Of a stretch of 64,000 bases of DNA, positions 13,204-25,361 are shown in pieces. Both the position numbers and the translations under genes were made by a program. The notes under the pieces were generated by a model that saw nothing but the letters and a program-made list of their open reading frames with translations, made no database searches and was not told the DNA's origin. How positions within the stretch are numbered: the first letter of the stretch is position 1; the number at the start of each line of letters is the position of its first letter. Source of the stretch: a bacterium (GTDB lineage: Bacteria; Planctomycetota; Planctomycetia; Isosphaerales; Isosphaeraceae); assembly GCA_016125085.1 (NCBI GenBank), contig WGMM01000029.1, positions 16,745-80,744 on the forward strand, in the 5' to 3' direction.

Positions 13204-14376
13204 TTACGAACCAGGAATTTCGGAATTCCGGGGACGACCGCTCACGTGCGGCTCCCGCAGCTCCGGCGACACATCAGCCAGCGCCGCATCGGGGACGACG
13301 AACGAGTTTTCCAGCAATTTCTCGTCGTCGTTGATCAAGTCCGGATATCGCCGGCCCGGCAGCACGGTCACGGCGAAGACCTCCTGCACAGCGGTCTCGA
13401 AACGCAAGAGAGCGACGACTTGCCCGGAAGTCAGGTCGATCACGCAGACGCCGCAGGTTCTCTCTTCTTCGGGCAGCCGCTCGGTAATCGGAATGCCGCT
13501 GAAGACCGCGCTTTCACGCACCTGGGAGAGGCCCACGAAGGCGAAATTCCCGGCGAAATCCACGCCCCGCGTGAAGCCTGAAACTTCGGCGATCGGCTCA
13601 TACTTGCCGGTTCTGAGATCGATGTAGCCGAAGGTCCCTGCGCCCGATTCGCACACCCAGAGCCGCCCGCGATACCATCGCGGCGAGTGGGGCATCGAAA
13701 GGCCCCGCGTGATCACCTCGCCCGAGGCTACGTCCATGACGATGCCGCCTCTCGCCTTGTTCGCCCGCCAGCCGGCCGGCGTGTCCGTCTCGCCCAGCGC
13801 CGTGACGTACTTCGGCTTGCCGTCGAACATCCCCAATCCGTTCAGGTGGCATCGGTCGGTCGGCTCAAGGGCCGAGACGAACGGCGGCCGCCAGCGGGGC
13901 GTGAAGCTCGCGGACTTGTCGATCGTGCAGAGACACGAGAACCGCGTGTTGACGGCCCAGAGTTCCTCGCCGCTGCCCCAGGCCATATCGTGAATCTGAA
14001 TGTTGCCCGTGAAATGGGCTGACCGGGGCAGAAAGCACGCATCGTGCCGACCGGTCGGTTCCAGCCGCGCCGCCACTGCCGGGACGTCGACGTATTCCCA
14101 CACATGTATCTGCGTGCCGACCGCCAGGCGGTTGCCGGCCACGGCCAGGCCCATGGGTGAGTGAAAGGCGCGGAAGTGCGCGTTGAGGTGATCTCCTTCG
14201 TCGCGGACCAGCACGAGCTTGCCGGCCTGATAGGTGGTGACAAGGAGCGACGCGCCGATCTGACGCAGAATCGCAGGGAAGTTCGCCGTGTGAACCGCCC
14301 GAAGTTGTATCGCGGCATCCGCCACGGAGAGTTCCGGTTCTGGCATCGGTTCGGCGATTGAAGCGGCTGTCGTCAT
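13204..14376 (-). CDS. TIGR03032-family (DUF4915-like) conserved hypothetical protein
   Basis: The 390-aa ORF carries motifs I associate with TIGR03032: SPMGLAV..NRLAVGT, HDMAW....LWAVNTRFSCLCT, FTPRWRPPFVS, DRCHLNGL, SMPHSPRW..GRLWVCESG. It is co-directional with, and 152 nt upstream of, the giant CDS. Confidence 0.7.
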   Translation of the reverse strand: MTTAASIAEPMPEPELSVADAAIQLRAVHTANFPAILRQIGASLLVTTYQAGKLVLVRDEGDHLNAHFRAFHSPMGLAVAGNRLAVGTQIHVWEYVDVPAVAARLEPTGRHDACFLPRSAHFTGNIQIHDMAWGSGEELWAVNTRFSCLCTIDKSASFTPRWRPPFVSALEPTDRCHLNGLGMFDGKPKYVTALGETDTPAGWRANKARGGIVMDVASGEVITRGLSMPHSPRWYRGRLWVCESGAGTFGYIDLRTGKYEPIAEVSGFTRGVDFAGNFAFVGLSQVRESAVFSGIPITERLPEEERTCGVCVIDLTSGQVVALLRFETAVQEVFAVTVLPGRRYPDLINDDEKLLENSFVVPDAALADVSPELREPHVSGRPRNSEIPGS

Positions 14377-15547: not shown

Positions 15548-18500
15548 ATGAACGAACTCGACCTGTTCGCTGCCGCGATTGCGATCGACGACTCTCGCGA
15601 GCGTGATGCCCTGCTGGATCGTGAATGTGCCGGCCGCCCGGAGCTGCGCCTGCGGCTCGACGAGCTGCTGGTCGAGCACTTCCGAATCGACCCGCGATCC
15701 GATCGACCGGGCTGCGAGCCGACCACGTCTCTTTCCGCAACGGAGGCTGGAGATATGGGCACCCAGATCCGATGGAAGCCGGCCGACGACGTGGAGATGG
15801 ACAAGACCTTCATCGATCGGCCGCAGGATTATGCCGAGCCGGGGATCTTCGGCCCGGGCGATCGCGACAAGAACGAGCAGGCCGGCACCGTCATCGCCGG
15901 CAAGTACACGCTGGCCGAAGTCATCGGCGAGGGCGGCATGGGCTCCGTCTGGCGGGCCCGGCAGACCGAGCCGGTCAAGCGGTTCGTCGCGGTCAAGCTG
16001 ATCAAGGCCGGCATGGACTCCCGGCAGGTCCTGGCCCGGTTCGAGGCCGAACGCCAGGCCCTCGCGATGATGGATCACCCCAACATCGCCAAGGTGCTCG
16101 ACGGGGGGCTGCACCAGGGCCGGCCCTACTTCGTGATGGAGCTGGTCAAGGGCATCCCGATCACCGATTATTGCGATCGGAAACGGCTCACCCCGAAGGA
16201 GCGGCTCGATCTTTTCGTCCCGGTCTGCCAGGCGATCCAGCATGCCCACCAGAAGGGGATCATCCACCGCGACATCAAGCCCTCCAACGTGCTGATCGCA
16301 CTTTACGACGACCGGCCCGTGGTGAAGGTGATCGACTTCGGCGTGGCCAAGGCGACCGGCGGAGCGCTCACCGATCAGACCCTCGATACCGGCTTCGGCG
16401 GCGTGGTCGGCACGCCCCAGTACATGAGCCCCGAGCAGGCGACGTTCAACAATCTGGACGTCGACACTCGCAGTGACGTCTATGCCCTGGGCGTTCTGCT
16501 CTACGAGCTGCTGACCGGCTCACCGCCGTTTTCCAGGGACGAACTGGAGAAACGCGGCGTCCTGGAGATGCTGCGGGTGGTGCGTGAGGAGGAGCCGCCC
16601 CGGCCGAGCACGAAGCTCTCGACGGCCGATGCGCTGCCGTCGCTTTCGGCCAACCGGAGCACCGTGCCTTCGAAGCTGGCGGGCCTGCTGCGGAACGAAC
16701 TCGACTGGATCGTGATGAAGGCGCTGGAGAAGGACCGGTCACGGCGTTACGAGACGGCCAACGGGTTCGCGGCCGACGTGCAGCGATATCTGGCGGGCGA
16801 GGCGGTTCTGGCGCACCCGCCGAGCACTGGCTACCGGCTGCGGAAGTTCGCGCGAAAGCACCGGGTGGGGCTGACGACGACGGCGGCGCTGGCGCTGCTG
16901 CTGGTGGCGGGGGTGGCCGCCAGCACCTGGCAGGCGGTGCGCGCCACGCGGGCGGAGGCGGCTGCGCGGCTCGCGGAAGGCGTCGCGGTGCGGGCGCAGC
17001 GGGCCGAAGCCGAGCGAGCCGAGGGCGAGCGGCTCGCCAGGCTCGACGCGCAGGCCAGGAAGGCCGAGGCCGAGCGAGCGCAGATTCGCGCCGAGGCGGG
17101 CGAGGCACTTGCCGGCGAGCGGCTCGTCCAGGTCGAGGCCGAGAAGAAGAAGGCCGAGGAGGAGCAGCAGATCGCCCAGGCGGTGAAGGTCTTTCTGCTA
17201 AATAAGCTGCTGGCCCAGACCGACGTGAGTCAGCAGGCCGACGCGCTGCTGAAGGCGGGCGGCACGGCGACCGAGGCGCGGCCGAACCCGACCATCCGCG
17301 AGCTTCTCGACCGGGCCGCCAGGGAGCTGGCGCCGGACCGGATTGAGCAGAGCTTCCCGGGGCAACCTCGGGTCCAGTCCGAGATTCTCGCCACGGTGGG
17401 CAACGCCTATCGTGGCATCGGCGAATTCCCGGCGGCGATCGAATTCCTGAAACGGTCCGAAGCCTTGTGCCGGCAACACGGCGGCCCCGAGCACCCCAGT
17501 ACGCTCAACAGAATGCACCTTCTTGCCCTCGCGTATGAAGCCGCCGGCAAGCCGATGCTGGCCGTGCCGCTCTTCGAGGAAACCCTGAGGATTCGAAGGG
17601 CCACGCTCGGCCCCGAGCACCAAGACACGCTCAATACGATGAGTTCGCTCGCCGGGGCGTATAGTTCCGCCGGGGAGGCTGACCTGGCCGTGTCGCTCCA
17701 CGAGGAGACCCTGAGGATTCGAAGGGCCACGCTCGGCCCCGAGCACCACGACACCATCGCCGGAATGAGCAACCTCGCCCTGGCATACCGCCACGCCGGG
17801 AAGGTGGACCTGGCCGTGCCGCTCGCCACAGAGGCGTTGAGACTGACGAAGGCCAAGCTTGGCCCCGACCACCCCGATACGCTCAGCGGCATGAGCAATC
17901 TCGGCATGCTGTATAAGGTCGCCGGGAAGCCGGGCCTGGCACTGCCGCTCTACGAGGAGGCGTTGAGGCGACAGAAGGCGAAGCTCGGCCCCGAGAATCC
18001 CAGCACCCTGACCACGATGAACAGCCTCGCCGCGGCGTATCTTGACGCCGGGAAGGCGGACCTGGGGCTGCCGCTCATGGAGGAGACCGTGAAGCTCAGG
18101 CGGGCCACGCTCGGCCCCGAGCATCCCAGGACTCTCGACAGCATGGGCAACCTTGCCCTGGCGTATAACATGGCGGGGAAGGCGGACCTGGCCATGCCGC
18201 TCATCGAGGAGACCCTGAAGCTCCGGCGTGCCACACTCGGCCCCGAGCATCCCAGGACACTCGACGGCATGAGGATCCTGGCCGGCACGTATAACGCCGC
18301 CGGGAAGGCGGACCTTGCCGTGCCGCTCTACGAGGAAACGCTGAGGCGACAGCAGGCGAAGCTCGGCCCCGAGCACCCCGACACGCTCACCACGATGGCC
18401 AGCCTCGCCGTGGCGCATCTCGCCACCGGGAGGGCGGACCTGGGCCTGCCGATCTTCGAGGAGACCCTGAAGCTCAACAAGTCAAGGCTTGGTGCCGAGA

Positions 18501-19192
18501 ATCCGAACACGCTCATCGCGATGAACAACCTCGCCGGGACGTACAATGTCGTCGGGAAGCCGGACCTGGCCCAGCCCGTCGCCGAGGAGGCGCTGGAGCT
18601 CGCGAAGGCTGCGCTCGGCTCCGAGCACCCCATCACGCGCAATGCCCAGAATATACTGGACTTGGCGCGGCGGCTGCTGGACGCCGAAGATCGGTATCGA
18701 CGCGAGCGGGAGGCCCACGGGCCCGGGCACATCGACGCCCTGCTCGCCCTGCGTGACGTAGCCCAGTTGAAGCTGGGCCGAAATCAACTCGACGAAGCCG
18801 AGCGGCTTCTCGACGAGGTGCTCAAAGGGATCGCGGACCGGCCGGCCGATGACACGGCGCGGGCGCCCACCGTCGACCTCGTGGTGAAGTGCCTTGCCGC
18901 CCGTACCAGGACGGATCCCGACGCATGGACGGTGTACCGCACGAAGTCAATGCTCGGCGGGGCGATGCTCGGCCAGAAGAATTACGCCCAGGCCGGGCCG
19001 CTGCTCCTGGCGGGTTACGAGGGGCTGAAGCAGCGCGAGTCATCAATCCCGGAGCCGGCCCGGGCCTGCCTGCCCGAGGCGCTCGACCGCCTGATCTCGC
19101 TCTCCACCGCCACGAACCAGCCGGACGAGGTCAAGAAATGGCAAGCCGAGCGGGCGAAGTACCCCATGGCGAAACCCGAAAGCCTGAAATGA
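15548..19192 (+). CDS. Ser/Thr protein kinase with transmembrane segment, coiled-coil and TPR repeat domain
   Basis: Kinase motifs are present: GEGGMGSVWRA, VAVKLIK, HRDIKPSNVLI, DFGVAKA, GTPQYMSPEQ. A TM segment follows (LTTTAALALLLVAGVAASTW), then an Ala/Glu/Arg-rich coiled coil and 42-residue TPR-type units. Confidence 0.9.
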   Translation: MNELDLFAAAIAIDDSRERDALLDRECAGRPELRLRLDELLVEHFRIDPRSDRPGCEPTTSLSATEAGDMGTQIRWKPADDVEMDKTFIDRPQDYAEPGIFGPGDRDKNEQAGTVIAGKYTLAEVIGEGGMGSVWRARQTEPVKRFVAVKLIKAGMDSRQVLARFEAERQALAMMDHPNIAKVLDGGLHQGRPYFVMELVKGIPITDYCDRKRLTPKERLDLFVPVCQAIQHAHQKGIIHRDIKPSNVLIALYDDRPVVKVIDFGVAKATGGALTDQTLDTGFGGVVGTPQYMSPEQATFNNLDVDTRSDVYALGVLLYELLTGSPPFSRDELEKRGVLEMLRVVREEEPPRPSTKLSTADALPSLSANRSTVPSKLAGLLRNELDWIVMKALEKDRSRRYETANGFAADVQRYLAGEAVLAHPPSTGYRLRKFARKHRVGLTTTAALALLLVAGVAASTWQAVRATRAEAAARLAEGVAVRAQRAEAERAEGERLARLDAQARKAEAERAQIRAEAGEALAGERLVQVEAEKKKAEEEQQIAQAVKVFLLNKLLAQTDVSQQADALLKAGGTATEARPNPTIRELLDRAARELAPDRIEQSFPGQPRVQSEILATVGNAYRGIGEFPAAIEFLKRSEALCRQHGGPEHPSTLNRMHLLALAYEAAGKPMLAVPLFEETLRIRRATLGPEHQDTLNTMSSLAGAYSSAGEADLAVSLHEETLRIRRATLGPEHHDTIAGMSNLALAYRHAGKVDLAVPLATEALRLTKAKLGPDHPDTLSGMSNLGMLYKVAGKPGLALPLYEEALRRQKAKLGPENPSTLTTMNSLAAAYLDAGKADLGLPLMEETVKLRRATLGPEHPRTLDSMGNLALAYNMAGKADLAMPLIEETLKLRRATLGPEHPRTLDGMRILAGTYNAAGKADLAVPLYEETLRRQQAKLGPEHPDTLTTMASLAVAHLATGRADLGLPIFEETLKLNKSRLGAENPNTLIAMNNLAGTYNVVGKPDLAQPVAEEALELAKAALGSEHPITRNAQNILDLARRLLDAEDRYRREREAHGPGHIDALLALRDVAQLKLGRNQLDEAERLLDEVLKGIADRPADDTARAPTVDLVVKCLAARTRTDPDAWTVYRTKSMLGGAMLGQKNYAQAGPLLLAGYEGLKQRESSIPEPARACLPEALDRLISLSTATNQPDEVKKWQAERAKYPMAKPESLK
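17370..18660 (+). repeat. about ten 42-residue (126-nt) TPR-like units in the kinase C-terminal domain
   Basis: The unit recurs as LA.AY..AGK.DLA.PL.EETL..RRA.LGPEHP.TL..M..L. LGPEH-type motifs were counted ten times. Confidence 0.8.
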
Positions 19193-19683
19193 AGCCCGAC
19201 GACTTCCTGCCGCAGGTATACGAGGAGCTTCGCCGGCTCGCGGCGGCGAGGATGGCGACGGAGAAGCCCGGCCAGACGCTCGACGCGACGGGGTTGGTCC
19301 ACGAGACCTTCCTCAAGCTCGGCGGCGACCGCTCGTTCGCCACCCGGGCCGACTACCTGAAGGCCGCCGCCGTCGCCATGCGGCGGATCCTCGTCGATCG
19401 CGCTCGGGCCCGCAACGCGGCCAAGCGCGGCGGCGGGCGGCGCGTCGACCTCGAATCGCACCACCTCGCCATCGAGCCCGCGGCCGACTTCGAGACACTT
19501 GACGCCGCTCTTTCCCGCCTCGCCATCGAACACCCTCGCATCGCGGAACTCATCCAGCTCCGATACTTCGGCGGGTCGACCCTCGCCGAGTGTGCCGAAA
19601 TCCTTGGCGTGTCGGAACGCACGGCCGACACGTGGTGGGCTTACGGGCGAGCCTGGCTCGCGGTCGCTCTCAAGGATGACTGA
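19189..19683 (+). CDS. ECF-type RNA polymerase sigma factor (kinase-associated, ECF43/TIGR02999-like)
   Basis: The translation is MKPDDFLPQVYEELRRLAAARMATEKPGQTLDATGLVHETFLKL...IAELIQLRYFGGSTLAECAEILGVSERTADTWWAYGRAWL. ATG 19189-19191 overlaps the kinase TGA 19190-19192 (ATGA). The longer track ORF starting at 18889 is an out-of-frame read-in over the kinase. Confidence 0.85.
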   Translation: MKPDDFLPQVYEELRRLAAARMATEKPGQTLDATGLVHETFLKLGGDRSFATRADYLKAAAVAMRRILVDRARARNAAKRGGGRRVDLESHHLAIEPAADFETLDAALSRLAIEHPRIAELIQLRYFGGSTLAECAEILGVSERTADTWWAYGRAWLAVALKDD

Positions 19684-20313
19684 CCCGAGCGTGCGTGACC
19701 GACGGAGTTCAGGCATCTCACAGCCATCGATCGCCCCTCATGACGCGACCGCAACATCATCGACTCGCACGGCGAGCCGTATGGAGGATGACCTGGTGAT
19801 TGCCTGGAATCGATCTTTCGGATGGACCCTTCCGGGTCATCCGAAGGCAGGCAATAACACTGACCAATATCACGGTCGCCATGCTCGGCTCGAATTCGCA
19901 ACCGACTGACGAGCCACAACTTCTGATCGACTTGACGTCCTTCATCGATGACATGGGCCGTGGTGCTTTCCCCGCTGCGGCAACCGGGATGCCCAGACGC
20001 CGAGGAACGGAGGGCTCACTTCATGTGGGCCGTGGTTCACAACGGGACTGAATCGCTGCCGTGGAGATTGTCGGGGTTCTCCAGGCGTCAGTCGATTTCT
20101 GTTCGGCCGATCCGCTCGATTGACGACGACTTCTTGGGTGCCCGCACGGTCTTCACCCAGCCTCATGAGCTTGCTCGTCGTTCACTGGCATGAGGTCGCG
20201 CAGCGATCGACGTCCAAGTCGCAAAGGCTCGCGAGATGCTCTCGCCGGCACTGCAGGCTGGGCTTCGCGGCCTGGAGAATTACGCCGCCGATCTTTTCAG
20301 GCGGAAGGGCCGT

Positions 20314-20408
20314 GACTGACAGCGCTTCAGCGTACATGGCCACGTCGGCGTGGTATCATCATGCGAGTGGCTTGCGCGTGGCCGGGCTGCTGAGCTTCGG
20401 CGTTCTGC
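20314..20408 (+). repeat. attC-like site A (degenerate)
   Basis: Layout: GACTGAC(20314)-AGC-GCTtCAGC(20324-20331)...GCTGAGC(20389-20395)-TTCGGC-GTTCTGC(20402-20408). It forms a 7-bp stem with a bulged T, and the L'-6nt-R' layout matches site D. Confidence 0.4.
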
Positions 20409-20424
20409 GGTGGAGGGCGCTCGG

Positions 20425-20778
20425 ATGGATTCGCAGGTCGCTTACCCTCGCCTATGGCAGATGTTCGGGGCGTTCTTCCACCAGGACTGGGACTTCGAGG
20501 GTGACGACTGGCCGGACCTCGTCCGCAACTTCGCCGGCGTCAAGCCGCAGGCGGAACTGGACGCCACGGCCGCGGAACTGGACCGGCTCCTGGCCGATCT
20601 CCCCGACGATGCGGCCTTGGACCGCGAGTTGTACGACGTGCTGGGCTGCTCGTTCCTGCCGCGGCCGGACCTCGGTGGGCCGACGGTGCGGGTATGGCTC
20701 GGGCAGATTGCCACGTTCCTGCGCGGCGGCGCACAAGACGCCGAACCAGGTGCTGCATCTGACCGGCGAGGCATATAG
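20425..20778 (+). CDS. contact-dependent-inhibition (CdiI_2-like) immunity protein
   Basis: MDSQVAYPRLWQMFGAFFHQDWDFEGDDWPDLVRNFAG...ELDRLLADLPDDAALDRELYDVLGCSFLP. The YP.L...FGAYFHQDW motif is what I remember for this immunity family. The ATG is 22 nt after core A. Confidence 0.55.
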   Translation: MDSQVAYPRLWQMFGAFFHQDWDFEGDDWPDLVRNFAGVKPQAELDATAAELDRLLADLPDDAALDRELYDVLGCSFLPRPDLGGPTVRVWLGQIATFLRGGAQDAEPGAASDRRGI

Positions 20779-20829
20779 GCTTTCCCAGGGTTCAAGCTCC
20801 CTCAGCCCCGTCGGCAGGTGAGCCAGGTC

Positions 20830-20836
20830 GTTAGGT
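20830..20836 (+). repeat. GTTAGGT core-like box B (no convincing R''/stem found)
   Basis: caggtcGTTAGGTgccagATG lies 5 nt upstream of the ATG at 20842. Only a weak hairpin, GCTCCCTCAGCC/GGCAGGTGAGC, lies upstream. Confidence 0.3.
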
Positions 20837-20841
20837 GCCAG

Positions 20842-21228
20842 ATGGAACTTCCAGGCGAGCTCATAGCCAAGGCATCCCGGCGAGGAAACGAATACGCCTG
20901 GGCGCCAAGCGATTTCCCGGCTGTCCTGTCGAGAGCTGAGGAGCTTGGATTCGCTTGTTTGGGCGGCCAGTTTCAGTTTCGGACGCCAGATGCGACCTGC
21001 GAGATGTACTGGCTAAGTGCCGATGCGGCTGAAAGGCGGCCCGGCGAGTCGTGGCAAACGTACGTGTCACGCTCATCCGCAGAGGTTCTCGATCATTTCA
21101 GTTCGTTGCTCAAGACCACTGACTTTCGCGCTGAGGCAATGAGCTGGCCGGACGTGCCGGAGTTGTCCGGTGTAAGTGCTCAGCCAGAGCCCCATCTGTG
21201 CTTTGTCGCATACTTCGTCAATAAGTGA
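20842..21228 (+). CDS. polymorphic-toxin immunity protein-like (Imm40-like)
   Basis: MELPGELIAKASRRGNEYAWAPSDFPAVLSRAEELGFACLGGQFQFRTPDATCEMYWLSADAAERRPGESWQTYVSRSSAEVLDHF. This resembles the Imm40-type pattern as I recall it (NE.AW ... LGG ... ESW..YV.RS..E). The track ORF starts at 20818; the ATG at 20842 is preferred. Confidence 0.5.
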   Translation: MELPGELIAKASRRGNEYAWAPSDFPAVLSRAEELGFACLGGQFQFRTPDATCEMYWLSADAAERRPGESWQTYVSRSSAEVLDHFSSLLKTTDFRAEAMSWPDVPELSGVSAQPEPHLCFVAYFVNK

Positions 21229-21233
21229 CCGGC

Positions 21234-21260
21234 ACCTGACTACTCGCTCAAGCGTTAGGC
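21234..21260 (+). repeat. attC-like site C (very short, probably truncated)
   Basis: Layout: ACCTGAC(21234)-13 nt-GTTAGGC(21254). ACCTGA is complementary in 5 of 6 positions to TTAGGT, which opens this cassette at 20831. Confidence 0.35.
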
Positions 21261-21392
21261 CGCGCGAACGAAGCCGGAAATCGCAATTCATCATCTGCGG
21301 AAGCGGTTCGGAGAAAACCGGCACAAACTCGTTGCATCAGCCGGGCTTGTTGGTCAAATTGAACGAATCTCGCAGTTCGTCCGCAAGAACGT

Positions 21393-21443
21393 GCCTTACC
21401 CGGCGCTTCAGCGGCCCCGGTCCGCTGAGCTTGTGCGTTAGGC
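21393..21443 (+). repeat. attC-like site D
   Basis: Layout: GCCTTAC-CCGGC-GCTtCAGCGG-CCCCGGT-CCGCTGAGC-TTGTGC-GTTAGGC. The R boxes pair at 6 of 7 positions. The L stem is 9 bp with one extrahelical T, flanked by unpaired spacers of 5 and 6 nt. Confidence 0.6.
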
Positions 21444-21479
21444 GGCTCGGGTCGCCCCCTTCGCGCATCGGAGGTTTAT

Positions 21480-21824
21480 GTGGGCAGCCGGGCTTCTGTT
21501 TCTGTCCGCGGGCTCATGCTCGTCGTGGCCTTGGTCGCCATCTCGTTCTGGGCGTTCGATACCGTCCGGATGAACCGGCGGTCGGAGCGGTACCGTAGCT
21601 ACGCGGCCTACAACGATGAGATGGTCCGACGTTGCCGCGACATCGTTGCGATGGATCCGATCGAGCGAGCCAGGAAGTCCGTGGAGGCATACGACGACCC
21701 TTACCTCTTTAACCCCGCCTGGACGAAGGAGATGATCTCTTACCATTCGAGGGTGCGCGACATCTTCGCACACGCGGCCGAGCACCCGCGTGAGCCATTG
21801 CCACCACACCCGCAGAACCCGTGA
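21480..21824 (+). CDS. small membrane-anchored hypothetical protein
   Basis: 114-aa ORF with an N-terminal TM segment (LMLVVALVAISFWAF). I recognise no family. Confidence 0.45.
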   Translation: MGSRASVSVRGLMLVVALVAISFWAFDTVRMNRRSERYRSYAAYNDEMVRRCRDIVAMDPIERARKSVEAYDDPYLFNPAWTKEMISYHSRVRDIFAHAAEHPREPLPPHPQNP

Positions 21825-21838
21825 GCAAGGCCGGGATC

Positions 21839-21940
21839 ATCAAACCTCGCGCTGCAGCGGCCCCGGCCCGCCGCGACGCAAACAGTGCTTCATGTAAGAC
21901 TTCCCTCGGCGGTCCGGTCCGCTGAGCTTGGTCGTTATCC
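21839..21940 (+). repeat. attC-like site E
   Basis: Layout: ATCAAAC-CTCGC-GCTgCAGCGGcCCCGG ... CCGGtCCGCTGAGC-TTGGTC-GTTATCC. There is an alternative local hairpin, CTCGGCGG-TCCGGT-CCGCTGAG. Confidence 0.5.
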
Positions 21941-21952
21941 AACAGAGATTCA

Positions 21953-22303
21953 ATGACTCCCGAGCAATTCAACGAGGCAATCCAAATGCTTCGTAGTACC
22001 GACCCAATGACATACGAAGACGGCTACCATTGGCTTCAAGGCGACAATCTCATCCAATATGCTCCACAGATCGTTGAGATACTGCTATCTGAAGACGATC
22101 CCAACATACGGGCTAAGTTTGTGGAGCTGGTCGGTGATGCAGACCTGCCAGAACACATACCACTGCTCGTTCAAGAACTGTCGCACACAGCCCACGAAGT
22201 ACGATCCTGGGCATACAATCAACTCTCACTTTCAGAACATGAATCTGCGAGAGCCCAGGCGGAACGATACCGACAATCACATCCAGATGAAGACTTCTAC
22301 TAA
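21953..22303 (+). CDS. small HEAT-repeat-like protein (possible immunity protein)
   Basis: MTPEQFNEAIQMLRSTDPMTYEDGYHWL...DPNIRAKFVELVGDADLPEHIPLLVQELSHTAHEVRSWAYNQLS. The segment is visibly more A/T-rich than its flanks. The ATG is 18 nt after the cassette boundary. Confidence 0.5.
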   Translation: MTPEQFNEAIQMLRSTDPMTYEDGYHWLQGDNLIQYAPQIVEILLSEDDPNIRAKFVELVGDADLPEHIPLLVQELSHTAHEVRSWAYNQLSLSEHESARAQAERYRQSHPDEDFY

Positions 22304-22313
22304 CGGATATGCT

Positions 22314-22404
22314 GGATAACAATCGGTTCAACCGGTGCCGCGGGCCGCGCGGTTTCTGATAACGATGTGGGTTGGCCGTGGCCCGGTTAACCGAAGCGTT
22401 AGGT
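22314..22404 (+). repeat. attC-like site F
   Basis: Layout: GGATAAC-AA-TCGGTTcAACCGGtGCC (22323-22339) ... GGCCCGGTTAACCGA (22380-22394)-AGC-GTTAGGT. The stem is 15 bp with two bulged bases on the 5' arm. GGATAA is the exact complement of TTATCC at the 5' end of this cassette (21935). Confidence 0.6.
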
Positions 22405-22415
22405 GGTTCTCCCCG

Positions 22416-22697
22416 ATGCTGGCCAATTGGATCTTCACCGAGAACCTCCGGCCCTTCCTCATATCACTCGGCTGGTTCGTCGGCTATGAATTCGACCCGG
22501 ATGACTGGACGGCGATCCGCTACGGCATCGAAGCCACCGATCAGGAGGCCGATCGTTGGTTCGAGTATGAGTTCGCTGGCCGGCAACGGGCCGCTTTCCG
22601 GCTCGCTTGTGATCCCGGTACTTCGGTCGTTCACGTCCGAGTCGAAGTCCCTGCGGCCCTCGTCCCCAAGGTTGAGGCTGCAATCGCCATCTTCTAG
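22416..22697 (+). CDS. hypothetical protein (cassette cargo)
   Basis: An ATG at 22416, 17 nt after core F, gives MLANWIFTENLRPFLISLGWFVGYEFDPDDWTAIRYGIEATDQEADRWFEYEF.... The track start at 22335 lies inside attC-like site F. Confidence 0.45.
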   Translation: MLANWIFTENLRPFLISLGWFVGYEFDPDDWTAIRYGIEATDQEADRWFEYEFAGRQRAAFRLACDPGTSVVHVRVEVPAALVPKVEAAIAIF

Positions 22698-22718
22698 GAG
22701 TTCCGCATCCAGGCCTAC

Positions 22719-22820
22719 TCCTAACCGCTCGCTGAAGCCGGCCCCGGTACCGCCGTGGCGCTCGATGGTCGTGCAAAAGTTCCTCTCGGCGGTCCGGTCC
22801 GCTGAGCTTGTTCATTAAGC
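22719..22820 (+). repeat. attC-like site G
   Basis: Layout: TCCTAAC-CGCTC-GCTGAAGCCGGCCCCGG ... CCGGTCCGCTGAGC-TTGTTC-ATTAAGC. The right half is nearly identical to site E. Confidence 0.5.
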
Positions 22821-22838
22821 CGGTTGAGGACGCAGGGG

Positions 22839-23120
22839 ATGGCGAACCGAAGCTTGATCTGCCCAATTTGTGGCATTATGCAACGGGTTGCCTGCGAGTC
22901 GCTCCGGGGTCCTGTGGGCATTGCACCCTGGCCATCGCATTGTGGGCGGCCGATGCTGATTCTTGGCTATCGGCAGTCTCAAGCGGCGACGCAACTCACA
23001 ACAGTCAAGCGTATCCGGTGGGTTGCCCTCGGTGGACCAATCCGCCAGGGACGCGGGCGCAAACGGTGGTTGCCCATTCTTTCCGAGGATCGACTGGGTG
23101 AGCGGTTCCCTTCCAGTTGA
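22839..23120 (+). CDS. small zinc-ribbon-like hypothetical protein (cassette cargo)
   Basis: MANRSLICPICGIMQRVACESLRGPVGIAPWPSHCGRPML..., with a CPICG ... HCG pair. The ATG is 24 nt after the cassette boundary. Confidence 0.4.
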   Translation: MANRSLICPICGIMQRVACESLRGPVGIAPWPSHCGRPMLILGYRQSQAATQLTTVKRIRWVALGGPIRQGRGRKRWLPILSEDRLGERFPSS

Positions 23121-23123
23121 GCC

Positions 23124-23192
23124 TCCTAAGGCAGGCCGATCCAGGTGGGTTGCAGCGGACCCATCTGTGCAGATCGGCTGGGTTCGTTAGAT
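23124..23192 (+). repeat. attC-like site H
   Basis: Layout: TCCTAAG-G-CAGgCCGATC ... GATCGGCTG-GGTTC-GTTAGAT. It forms a long imperfect hairpin over 23132-23180 with a bulged G. The stem sequence is unrelated to that of sites D, E and G. Confidence 0.45.
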
Positions 23193-23539
23193 TGGCTAGT
23201 GTCACACCCGGCAGACTGATCCGGAGAGCTTGTCGTTCGACTGCAAAGGGCTTCGCGTTGGAAAACCTTCGACAATACGGGCTGGTCCACATCCGGAAAT
23301 TGCTCCTCCCGCCCGCTGAGTACGATGGGTGGCGGGTCAACAAAAGGCATCCGGCCGTGGGCGATATGGGTGCACTACTCGAAATTCTGACCGCTCCCGG
23401 CCTTCCGGATCGGTATGTGGTCGAGTCGTCGGGGCCGGACGGTGTAACGGTGTGGCTCGGGGACTTCGCGGCCGAGGAGCTTGAGCCGTTGGGTAGTGGT
23501 GTCGCCGAACCAGACGCCTCAGCAGACGGCCATGGCTGA
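23192..23539 (+). CDS. hypothetical protein (start uncertain, TTG at 23192)
   Basis: This is the frame of track ORF 23117..23539. The first start after core H is TTG at 23192. I recognise no family. Confidence 0.3.
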   Translation: MASVTPGRLIRRACRSTAKGFALENLRQYGLVHIRKLLLPPAEYDGWRVNKRHPAVGDMGALLEILTAPGLPDRYVVESSGPDGVTVWLGDFAAEELEPLGSGVAEPDASADGHG

Positions 23540-23581
23540 CAGGTTTCCGGGAGTTCGTAGCTCACTCAGCCCCCGCTGTCG

Positions 23582-23869
23582 ATGAGCCTTGTCGTCAGGC
23601 GGAAGGTATCGATGCTCGAACGACAGCTTGCACATCTGGTTTTCCTGCGTCGCGGTTCCGTGCTTCTGGTCAAGCGGCCCGAAGCCGACTGGCGTCAGCT
23701 CCAGGACGAATACGACGGATTCATGACGTCGCTTGGCCCCTGGCCGAAAGAGGACATCTGCGAGTACTTCTCGATCGAGTACGGGCCGGACGATCGCCGT
23801 TGGCCATTCACACGACCGGATGTTGCGGAGTTTATGCGGGCGACTGACCGACTTGTGCTGGAGTCGTGA
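23582..23869 (+). CDS. hypothetical protein
   Basis: 95-aa ORF with ordinary composition. I recognise no family, and no attC-like element follows it. Confidence 0.3.
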   Translation: MSLVVRRKVSMLERQLAHLVFLRRGSVLLVKRPEADWRQLQDEYDGFMTSLGPWPKEDICEYFSIEYGPDDRRWPFTRPDVAEFMRATDRLVLES

Positions 23870-23971
23870 TCCTGGTTGAAGCCGTCGATGTCCGTTTCGG
23901 ACGTGTTCAGGAGGTCCAGGCACAGAGCCTTGATCGGATTCAATGCCTGGACCGTAAACGGCACTCAGACA

Positions 23972-25222
23972 TCAGCCAATACGCTCCATGGCCAGCCGTG
24001 CCTGGGCCTCGTCACGCTCGGCGTAAATCTCGGTCGTCGCGAGCGTTGAGTGGCCCAGGACCGCCCGTGCGACTTCGATCCCGAACTCGCGACGCAGGTT
24101 GGTCGCGGCCAGGTGGCGAAGCTGGTTCGCGTTCCAAGGCGAGACACCGGCTTTTTTGGCGGCATAGTGTATGGCCCGGTTATAGGCCTTGGCATCGTAA
24201 CACTTGCCTGGGTTTCGCTTTGGTGCTGTTTTTCGCCGGTCGATCTGCTATGGCTGAACTTTCGTTTTCCGTTCCGCCCGCATCCTCTGATTGCGAATAC
24301 GATCCGAGAGTTCCGGACTGAAGACAAAGGCCTCCGGGACGTCAGGCCGCAACCAAGGATTCAGGATATCCTGAGCCGCCGGTCCGAAGTAAACGACTCG
24401 GGATCGACCCATGTGCTGGGTTTTGTGCGACTGTGGTAGATTGGCCCAAACCGATTCCGACATGTCCAGGTCGGCCGTGCGCAAACGGCAAACCTCGCCT
24501 GGTCGAAGGCCCGCGAGTCTCTGAAGATCGACCATCGCCATGATCACCGGTGATGCGTGCGGGCGGATCGCTTCGATGGACGCCTCGGAGACGGCAGTGA
24601 CTTTACGAGGCTCACGGGCTTCGCTACGGCCCGCACGTAAACCGGGAATGGCTTTCAAGGCCATCAGGGTCTCAGGACGAACCAGCGATTCCGTCACACC
24701 CCAGCGGAACATACGTGTGATACGAGCAACCTGCTTGTTGATCGTCGTACGTGCCCAGCCCATGCGGATGAACTCGGCACGCAACGTCTTCAACTCGGCC
24801 GGACCGAAGTCGTCGACGCAGATCGAGCCGTAATATTTTCGCAGAAGCTTCAGAATGTACCTGATGCCATCGACTTCGGAGGTGGGCTGTCCGTCTTTGA
24901 CGTAGTAGCCAACGGCGTAGTCGTGATAGCGAACAGCCAGTTCGGTGATGCGAACTGTGCCATCGCTCAGATTATCAGCCAATGTGCGAGTGGCTGCTGC
25001 GGTTCGGCGGGGTTTCGGCGTTTTGCGGCCGTCGTTGAGCCACTGAGCGAGAATTCGTTCGTAAGCCTCTTTTGATTCTTGGCTTCCGTGCGCACCCAGG
25101 TGGATCTCGCGACCGTTCAGGATGACCCTGGCATATTTGCGCTTGTGGCGCAGGTATCTCGGCACTCTCATGATGTTTCCCAAGCCTCTGGAACTTGGGG
25201 ATTCCCCAACTTTCCGAGCCAT
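23972..25222 (-). pseudogene. tyrosine recombinase / phage-type integrase interrupted by an in-frame TAG at 24250..24248
   Basis: The track ORF 24248..25222 ends ...RMRAERKTKVQP*. The same frame continues QIDRRKTAPKRNPGKCYDAKAYNRAIHYAAKKAGVSPWNANQLRHLAATNLRREFGIEVARAVLGHSTLATTEIYAERDEAQARLAMERIG*. That continuation carries the catalytic RH, LGH and Tyr boxes. TGA is at 23974..23972. The gene starts 66 nt from the tRNA-Ala 3' end. Confidence 0.75.
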
Positions 25223-25288
25223 TCCGATGGCTATCGCCTCGTGTCTGGCTCCGATGTAAGTTATGAAATCTTAACGCTTTCCAGAGAG

Positions 25289-25361
25289 TGGAGACGATCG
25301 GGATCGAACCGACAACCCCCTGCTTGCAAAGCAGGTGCTCTCCCAATTGAGCTACGTCCCC
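25289..25361 (-). tRNA. tRNA-Ala (anticodon TGC)
   Basis: The minus-strand sequence is GGGGACGTAGCTCAATTGGGAGAGCACCTGCTTTGCAAGCAGGGGGTTGTCGGTTCGATCCCGATCGTCTCCA. It folds as a cloverleaf with 7/4/5/5-bp stems. It has the G3:U70 Ala identity pair, anticodon loop TT-TGC-AA and T-loop TTCGATC. No CCA is encoded. Confidence 0.95.

Follow-up and report, generated by a model that had tools for sequence, protein, structure and literature searches.

The organization of a block of small genes at 20.09–23.87 kb of a 64-kb stretch of planctomycete DNA (contig WGMM01000029.1 of assembly GCA_016125085.1, positions 16,745 to 80,744; Isosphaeraceae) was evaluated. The whole stretch is referred to as the window, and its coordinates are used throughout. 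The block consisted of about nine co-oriented cassettes, and the typical unit was a small open reading frame (ORF) on the + strand followed by a site of the attC type. Eight + strand ORFs (c1, c2 and c4–c9) were located at 20.3–23.9 kb and started 5–36 nt past an R' box, and one cassette (cas3, 183 nt) had no ORF. In the junction sites, R'' (RYYYAAC) was separated by 5 nt from L'', which had one bulged base, and a loop of variable length led to L', which was separated by 6 nt from R' (GTTRRRY). As judged from the sequence, the block is very probably an integron gene-cassette array without an integron integrase of its own, that is, a cluster of attC sites lacking an integrase (CALIN), in the chromosome of an Isosphaeraceae-like planctomycete. 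The bottom strand of an attC site folds with R'' paired to R' and L'' paired to L', and the unpaired central spacer and the extrahelical bases mark the strand. The integron integrase (IntI) cuts between G and TT of R'; excised cassettes are circular and are reinserted at attI, less often at another attC or a genomic GTT.

The sites were scored with a covariance model, R1, which was built from 33 non-redundant sites of IntI-linked arrays outside the window. Base pairs were specified only for the R and L boxes, and both strands of the entire window were searched with the filters disabled. All features of the array lay on the + strand. The leftmost was an isolated R'-type box, GTCAGTC (Z, 20087..20093), which complemented the R'' box of site A at 7/7 positions. 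This box is the tentative left edge of a tentative cassette 0 (315 nt, 20088-20402) bounded by Z and site A; R1 found no attC there, and the 7-mer would occur by chance in the 630 nt upstream with an estimated probability of about 4%. Site A (95 nt, 20314..20408) had the R'' box GACTGAC and the R' box GTTCTGC, and its L'' GCTtCAGCG paired with L' CTGCTGAGC (21.2 bits, E = 6e-4). The ORF c1 (117 aa, 20425..20778), with GGAGG located 5' of its ATG, encoded a member of the CdiI_2 immunity protein family (PF18593, 64.3 bits). Site B (97 nt, 20740..20836; 26.7 bits, E = 1e-5) had its R'' box GCCGAAC within the 3' end of c1 and the R' box GTTAGGT, and it was followed by c2 (128 aa, 20842..21228). 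Site C (21234..21260) was a 27-nt stump, ACCTGAC-TACTC-GC-TCAAGC-GTTAGGC, as read from the sequence; R'', both spacers and R' were kept without an L stem or loop, and there was neither an R1 match nor a fold. The cassette cas3 (21255..21437, conserved core 21261-21392) ended in site D (51 nt, 21393..21443; 49.3 bits, E = 1.4e-12), which was parsed as GCCTTAC-CCGGC-GCTtCAGCGG-CCCCGGT-CCGCTGAGC-TTGTGC-GTTAGGC.

Farther to the right, c4 (114 aa with a hydrophobic N-terminal segment, 21480..21824) preceded site E (102 nt, 21839..21940), whose boxes were R'' ATCAAAC and R' GTTATCC (69 bits, E = 1e-18, match 21839-21938). The ORF c5 (116 aa, 21953..22303) encoded HEAT repeats (PF13646, 32.1 bits) and was followed by site F (91 nt, 22314..22404), with R'' GGATAAC, R' GTTAGGT and L boxes of different sequence (14.0 bits, E = 0.1). 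Next were c6 (93 aa, 22416..22697) and site G (102 nt, 22719..22820; 51.7 bits, E = 2.4e-13), which had the R'' box TCCTAAC and a mutated core, ATTAAGC. The ORF c7 (93 aa with a Cys-rich N-terminus, 22839..23120) was followed by H (23124..23192), a hairpin with the R-like boxes TCCTAAG and GTTAGAT whose attC status is uncertain (R1 match 23135-23196). Its spacers were 4 and 7 nt, and folding placed the bulge on the 3' arm. Feature I (23209..23241) was a 3' half-site, CCGGAGAGC-TTGTC-GTTCGAC, with the R' box at 23235-23241, and shared 76% identity with the L'-spacer part of sites E and G. The ORF c8 (about 93 aa, 23258..23539; a TTG start was chosen and is uncertain) contained in its 3' end the R'' box GCCGAAC of site J (97 nt, 23504..23600; R' GTCAGGC; 14.0 bits, E = 0.09), which was homologous to site B. 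The last cassette carried c9 (85 aa, 23612..23869), and downstream of it no attC was recognisable, with no R1 match in 23870-23970. No family match in Pfam or NCBIfam was obtained for c2, c4, c6, c7, c8 or c9. The cargo, a CdiI-type immunity protein, a HEAT-repeat protein and six small proteins without a family match, is typical of environmental cassettes.

Sites B and J formed a subfamily with one site of locus L019 (2650-2744; loci fetched from other sequences are denoted by L and a number). The common R''-spacer-L'' part of this subfamily, GCCGAACCAGGnGCTGCAgCaGA, was located at 20740-20778 and 23504-23539 of the window and at 2650-2685 of L019. Read in frame, it formed the C-terminal tails of three unrelated proteins (AEPGAASDRRGI, AEPDASADGHG and AEPGAAAESGA). 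Hence, the recombination site would supply these proteins with a conserved peptide end.

An integrase-less cassette array with attC-like junctions had been read at 20314-23192 from the sequence by eye (the original prediction). On re-reading, all eight R' boxes and seven R'' boxes were found in their predicted places, and the predicted cassette lengths of 428, 424, 183, 497, 464, 416 and 372 nt were correct. The limits held for the core region and proved too narrow at the ends: the array continued past 23192 with half-site I, c8, site J and c9 to 23869, and a candidate R' box also lay upstream, at 20087. The array motifs were clustered within the window. Four of the five copies of GTTAGGY in the 64 kb (20830, 21254, 21437 and 22398) fell within 1.6 kb, and exact copies of CCGCTGAGCTTGnnC occurred in the window only at 21422, 21919 and 22799. 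No sigma-70-type promoter match was obtained across 19.6–24.1 kb. The region upstream of the array, 19684-20086, had no similarity to any fetched locus; attI sequences are not conserved between integron classes. An exact look-up of the c5 protein returned one public contig only (L001, Logan SRR10063242), whose 4.6 kb were 100% identical to window positions 17719-22371. This contig, which points to a sample containing the organism, stops inside site F, and the stop is probably an assembly break at a repeated site.

Geometry of the junction sites

R1 matched seven sites of the window (E, G, D, B, A, J and F), with scores from 69 down to 14 bits, and all seven matches were on the + strand; of the matches with E < 0.1, 7/8 were inside the array. 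The eighth match, 13498-13590 (+, 16.5 bits), was rejected as a false positive; it was antisense inside a DUF4915 gene (437 bits) and had no GTT core. The predicted parse of site D was recovered exactly by this model, which had been built without the window. The 15-bp L stem predicted for site F, with two bulges (C and T) on the 5' arm, was recovered by folding. In the folds of sites D, E, F and G, the R'' and R' boxes were paired; an internal loop separated them from the L stem, whose 5' arm carried bulged bases. The bottom-strand folds were better than those of shuffled sequences for E (z -2.9), H (-2.4), D (-12.2 kcal/mol, z -1.4), G and F, and this was not the case for A, B and J.

The boxes largely followed the attC pattern. 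The last three bases of R'' were AAC in five sites (B, E, F, G and J), GAC in A and C, and TAC in D; R' started with GTT in A–F and H, with GTC in J and, by mutation, with ATT in G. The R'' and R' spacers were 5 and 6 nt in the R1 alignments of B, D, E, F, G and J, 3 and 6 nt in A, and 4 and 7 nt in H. Extrahelical bases were found in L'' of D (GCTtCAGCGG against CCGCTGAGC), E (GCTgCAGCGG) and A (GCTtCAGCG), together with two extra bases in G and the two bulges of F; an L''/L' bulge of the expected kind was absent in C, which has no L stem, and in H, whose bulge is on the 3' arm. The bulged base occupied L'' position 4 in D, E, G, F and B, and it fell in the same R1 column in the window sites as in the aadA2 and cmlA5 attC sites.

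R1 was also applied in the reciprocal direction to four class 1 integrons from plasmids. The attC sites directly 3' of the cassette genes were matched on the cassette strand, with 53.2 bits for cmlA5, 27.0 for aadA2, 19.3 for aac(6')-Ib3, 19.1 for an oxidoreductase cassette and 13.8 for qacG2. Genuine divergent attC sites thus score at 14–27 bits, like window sites A, B, F and J. A scan of the whole window with Rfam at gathering thresholds yielded only a tRNA-Ala, and a permissive scan of 19.6–24 kb yielded nothing relevant. The assignment of the junction elements to attC-type sites is supported by these comparisons. The prediction that the junctions are attC sites was borne out by R1 matches for A, B, D, E, F and G; it failed for C, which is the 27-nt stump, and found no model support at H. 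A combination of H and I into a single 117-nt attC was tried and gained no support, as the L arms did not pair and the fold gave no signal (z -0.3).

Related arrays, cassette-wise covariation and cassette families

Related sites were sought with GTCCGCTGAGCTTGNNCRTTA, which spans L', the spacer and R' in sites D, E and G, in 185,579 species-representative genomes, for which about 9 chance matches were estimated. The scan returned 68 stretches, mostly from Isosphaeraceae and other Planctomycetota, often with several matches per 8 kb. They included Tautonia sociabilis, Tautonia sp. JC769, Aquisphaera insulae and many metagenome-assembled genomes, and a few matches were from Betaproteobacteria, Cyanobacteria and other groups. 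The full sites in these genomes, GCCTAAC-CTCGC-GCTgCAGCGGAC...GTCCGCTGAGC-TTGGTC-GTTAGGC, had the canonical attC layout, with a length of about 100 nt in planctomycetes versus 57–72 nt elsewhere. R1 gave 341 matches in the 68 stretches; these formed same-strand arrays, such as that of about 11 matches in the 5-kb contig L025. Moreover, these arrays were accompanied by integron integrases. In tblastn searches with IntI1 (the query was 100% identical to the real protein), full-length homologues with 50–55% identity adjoined the arrays in L002, L010, L042, L043 and L061, and partial homologues were present in seven further loci. Three of these IntIs scored 453–475 bits on TIGR02249 ('integron integrase', cutoff 265). 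L002 was a complete integron of the classic divergent layout, in which intI (- strand, 1126-2082) was followed by six + strand attC sites at 2514, 4599, 5285, 5857, 6416 and 7346.

The attC of cmlA5 (L073 1622-1691, -) carried the L boxes GCTGCAGCCGAC and GTCGGCTGAGC, which are one base pair from the consensus of the planctomycete and betaproteobacterial sites (L035, L048, L062, L047 and L067). One attC lineage appears to be common to several phyla, as far as the L boxes indicate.

The exchange of strands by IntI between G and TT of R' leaves an expectation for the boxes. R'' should complement the first bases of its own cassette (the TTRRRY of the previous junction) and need not fit its own R'. 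For sites B–H, as listed in the original prediction, R'' matched the previous R' at 39/49 positions and the own R' at 31/49, which agreed with the cassette-wise covariation that had been claimed. When the partners were shuffled, 39 was reached in 0.4% of trials (permutation p = 0.004, for those sites B–H only). With Z and I included, the counts were 52/63 for the previous R' and 39/63 for the own R'. Out of seven positions, the matches with the previous versus the own R' were 7 and 3 at A, 6 and 5 at B, 6 and 5 at C, 6 and 6 at D, 4 and 3 at E, 7 and 4 at F, 6 and 4 at G, 4 and 4 at H, and 6 and 5 at J. The own R' was not favoured over the previous one at any site. The core of site A had been thought to have no R'' partner at junction B; the partner does exist, as GCCGAAC at 20740 inside c1, and it matches the start of cassette 1 at 6/7 positions. 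The partner of site A is GTCAGTC at 20087-20093, and that of site J is GTTCGAC at 23235-23241, the end of half-site I. The complementarity between R'' and the cassette start is read as the footprint of recombination at G|TT.

Individual cassettes were also shared with other arrays. A homologue of c9 (72% aa identity) in L033 started 13 nt past an attC scoring 76 bits. The DNA similarity of 77% spanned the L'/R' core to the stop codon and then ended, and the neighbours differed on both sides. The L033 cassette ended in a normal attC about 370 nt past the stop codon, whereas c9 in the window was without one. L033 and the integron L002 are 5.1 Mb apart on the same 7.6-Mb contig, CAVTTN010000002.1. 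On this contig, the integron lies at 6.78 Mb (L002 and L069), and attC clusters were found at 0.82 (L013), 1.67–1.69 (L033 and L037), 1.97–1.98 (L059 and L016) and 5.89 Mb (L041). No IntI was detected by tblastn at the clusters away from the integron, of which there are at least four. One integron together with several integrase-less clusters per genome may be the rule in this group, to judge from this contig, and the seeding of cassettes at places other than attI may be frequent in the lineage. Several attC sites of this genome had an identical score of 83.8 bits. Three of them were spaced by 331 nt in L033 (1810-1909, 2141-2240 and 2472-2571), and others were located at L002 2514, L059 1900, 3774 and 4563, and L069 3361. 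These sites point to a short many-copy cassette, with a putative tandem triplicate and a copy in the first position after intI.

The ORF-less cassette cas3 belonged to a repeated family as well. Eleven related copies were found elsewhere, each a cassette of its own between attC sites: seven in L019 (1285, 2152, 3315, 4978, 5796, 7096 and 7848), two in L014 (5155 and 5888) and two on the reverse strand of L080 (538 and 1917). L019 and L014 are from the same Isosphaeraceae metagenome-assembled genome, and L080 is a metagenome contig; up to seven copies occurred per 8 kb. The copies were composed of about 135 nt plus an attC, were interspersed among ORF cassettes and had the invariant blocks CTTGC-N18-GGTCAAATTGAA and GCAGTTCGTCCGCAAG. 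A coding function is argued against by the 1-nt indels between copies. A structured RNA was not favoured either, with a consensus fold of -8 kcal/mol and no covariation. No sigma-70 promoter match was found in cas3, and a sigma-54-like GGCAC...TTGC was, by eye, wrongly spaced (12 nt, not 10). Tentatively, cas3 might represent a non-coding cassette family that was multiplied in Isosphaeraceae arrays, and it could be a portable regulatory or promoter module that switches on downstream cassettes which would otherwise be silent; this proposal, drawn by analogy, is rather doubtful.

Flanking genes, rival explanations and probable decay

The absence of an integrase to the left of the array, as originally predicted, extended to the entire window: tblastn with IntI1 and two planctomycete IntIs gave no IntI or remnant in the 64 kb. 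The only tyrosine recombinase gene in the window (23971-25222, - strand) was convergent with the array, and tblastn similarity was located at 24.0–24.6 kb. This recombinase was rejected as an IntI, as it scored 27.8 bits on TIGR02249 (cutoff 265) and matched no domain beyond the generic Phage_integrase; its gene is interrupted near 24250 by an in-frame stop codon (VQP*QID). The tRNA-Ala(TGC) gene was located at 25288-25361 on the - strand. Left of the array were an extracytoplasmic function (ECF) sigma factor gene and a Ser/Thr kinase gene with, by reading, tetratricopeptide-like repeats. The right-hand neighbours were the recombinase, tRNA-Ala, and PIG-L deacetylase, PP2C phosphatase, kinase and Lhr helicase genes; of these, the genes beginning with that of the PIG-L deacetylase were conserved in relatives. 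In the closest ones (89% and 80% aa identity in this deacetylase), the conservation was limited to the right flank, from 25.68 kb, and there was no tRNA there. The recombinase and the tRNA, neither of which had been noted in the original prediction, may be the remnant of an integrative element.

Given this neighbourhood, the array might be the cargo of a genomic island at tRNA-Ala, with the block having been moved, or the sites being acted upon, by the neighbouring tyrosine recombinase. The recombinase starts 66 nt past the 3' end of the tRNA, which is the usual layout of an island, the GC content drops from about 0.65 to 0.57–0.60 between 21 and 27 kb, and synteny with the closest relatives extends leftward only to the PIG-L deacetylase gene, next to the tRNA on its right. 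However, the recombinase gene is interrupted by the stop codon, and the window has no direct repeat of more than 12 nt of the tRNA-Ala 3' end. The 79 fetched loci contain hundreds of attC sites, and no homologue of the recombinase was found near any of these loci; in other genomes, the attC family is linked to IntI. The nature of the sites would in any case be the same on an island, and this explanation is considered unlikely. The original prediction had left the choice between a CALIN and the distal part of a sedentary integron. In the latter case the array would be the distal end of a large chromosomal integron with intI and attI just outside the window, and long arrays of the same site family do exist in related genomes. 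R1 found no more sites in the 20 kb leftward or the 40 kb rightward, though, and the array is bounded by the kinase and sigma factor genes on the left and by the recombinase to Lhr helicase genes on the right, the right-hand ones being conserved core genes. Ordinary genes on both sides thus favour a CALIN over a contiguous distal part of a larger integron, which is regarded as very improbable.

The junction elements could, finally, be an ordinary family of repetitive extragenic palindromic (REP)-like or terminator hairpins unrelated to integrons. They are GC-rich hairpins at gene 3' ends, and one (22785-22806) was flagged as terminator-like. Nevertheless, their orientation is the same throughout, the asymmetric 5/6-nt spacers and the bulge position are those of the aadA2 and cmlA5 attC sites, R'' complements the previous R' rather than its own, and the family forms arrays beside intI elsewhere. 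A scatter of the motif through non-cassette intergenic regions, which would have spoken for such hairpins, was not observed: in the window the motif was confined to the array and to one strand, with no copies elsewhere in the 64 kb, and in other genomes it formed same-strand arrays. The hairpin explanation is hardly credible on this evidence.

Several points weigh against the reading as a CALIN. Support for the sites is derived from R1, a surrogate for the IntegronFinder attc_4 and Planctomycetes attC models, and their attC identity is read from the sequence and this model. No L stem can form in site C, and site H had a non-significant R1 score (8.5 bits, E = 4.6). The folds of A (z +0.6), B (+0.3) and J (-0.3) were no better than shuffled, and the R1 scores of these sites were only 14–27 bits. 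The search for intI covered the 64-kb window of the source genome. A search for close relatives gave none that was syntenic on the left flank.

The state of the sites suggests that the array, as a CALIN, is partly fossilised. This is indicated by the ATT core of G, the stump at C, the fragments H and I, the R'' of E with 4/7 matches, the lack of an attC after c9 and the weak folds of A, B and J. Site G is probably inactive, because its core is ATT and not GTT. At best, an integrase acting in trans could use D, E and F, with B, J and A as less certain candidates. Rearrangement of the array would occur only if an IntI from elsewhere in the genome or from an incoming element acted in this manner, and expression of the cassette genes would depend on read-through or on internal promoters.

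Known systems and significance

By definition (Cury et al. 2016, PMC4889954), a CALIN comprises at least two attC sites, lacks an intI within 4 kb and has no intI pseudogene at a distance of up to 10 kb. The array in the window has at least seven model-supported attC sites, and no IntI signal was obtained anywhere in the 64 kb. The average CALIN has about 5 attC sites, and about half of CALINs are in genomes with an IntI elsewhere (PMC4889954). The array resembles the published CALINs in its heterogeneous, partly degenerate attC sites and in its small cassettes, mostly without database homologues (PMC4889954). It differs in nothing of principle; it abuts the pseudogene of a non-IntI recombinase and a tRNA, and it has a stump site and an ORF-less cassette. 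A taxon-specific attC model for Planctomycetes has been published (Ghaly et al. 2021, PMC8352920) and used (PMC9176274). The window sites would belong to the training family of that model. As in the chromosomal integrons of Planctomycetes, the host is of the same phylum, and sites D, E and G are in the family of about 100 nt that adjoins IntI in L002, L042, L043 and L061; unlike those integrons, the window array has no intI. With the class 1 attC sites (59-base elements; cmlA5 and aadA2), the window sites share the box order, the 5/6-nt spacers, the extrahelical base at L'' position 4 and the GTTRRRY core. They differ in that most are 91–102 nt rather than 60–70 nt long, and also in their non-mobile platform and in a cargo that has no relation to antibiotic resistance. 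Cassettes that lack a gene and have promoter activity have been described (PMC6557892, PMC11014356). Like these, cas3 is short, has no ORF, carries its own attC and recurs in the same orientation between ORF cassettes, whereas cas3 is a conserved multi-copy family in which no promoter motif was found.

One CALIN from the little-studied Isosphaeraceae is added by this array; CALINs (defined in 2016) and a Planctomycetes attC model are already published, so the known picture is unchanged. The analysis also indicates that an integron cassette array can be recognised by careful naked-eye reading. The multi-copy family of cas3, the attC-encoded C-terminal peptide and the likeness of L boxes across phyla are side observations of minor value. 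If cas3 were such a regulatory or promoter module, integrase-less arrays like that in the window would be expressed, and the order of cassettes around cas3 copies would be under selection. Furthermore, the near-identical L boxes of the planctomycete, betaproteobacterial and cmlA5 attC sites may help to trace the origins of cassettes.

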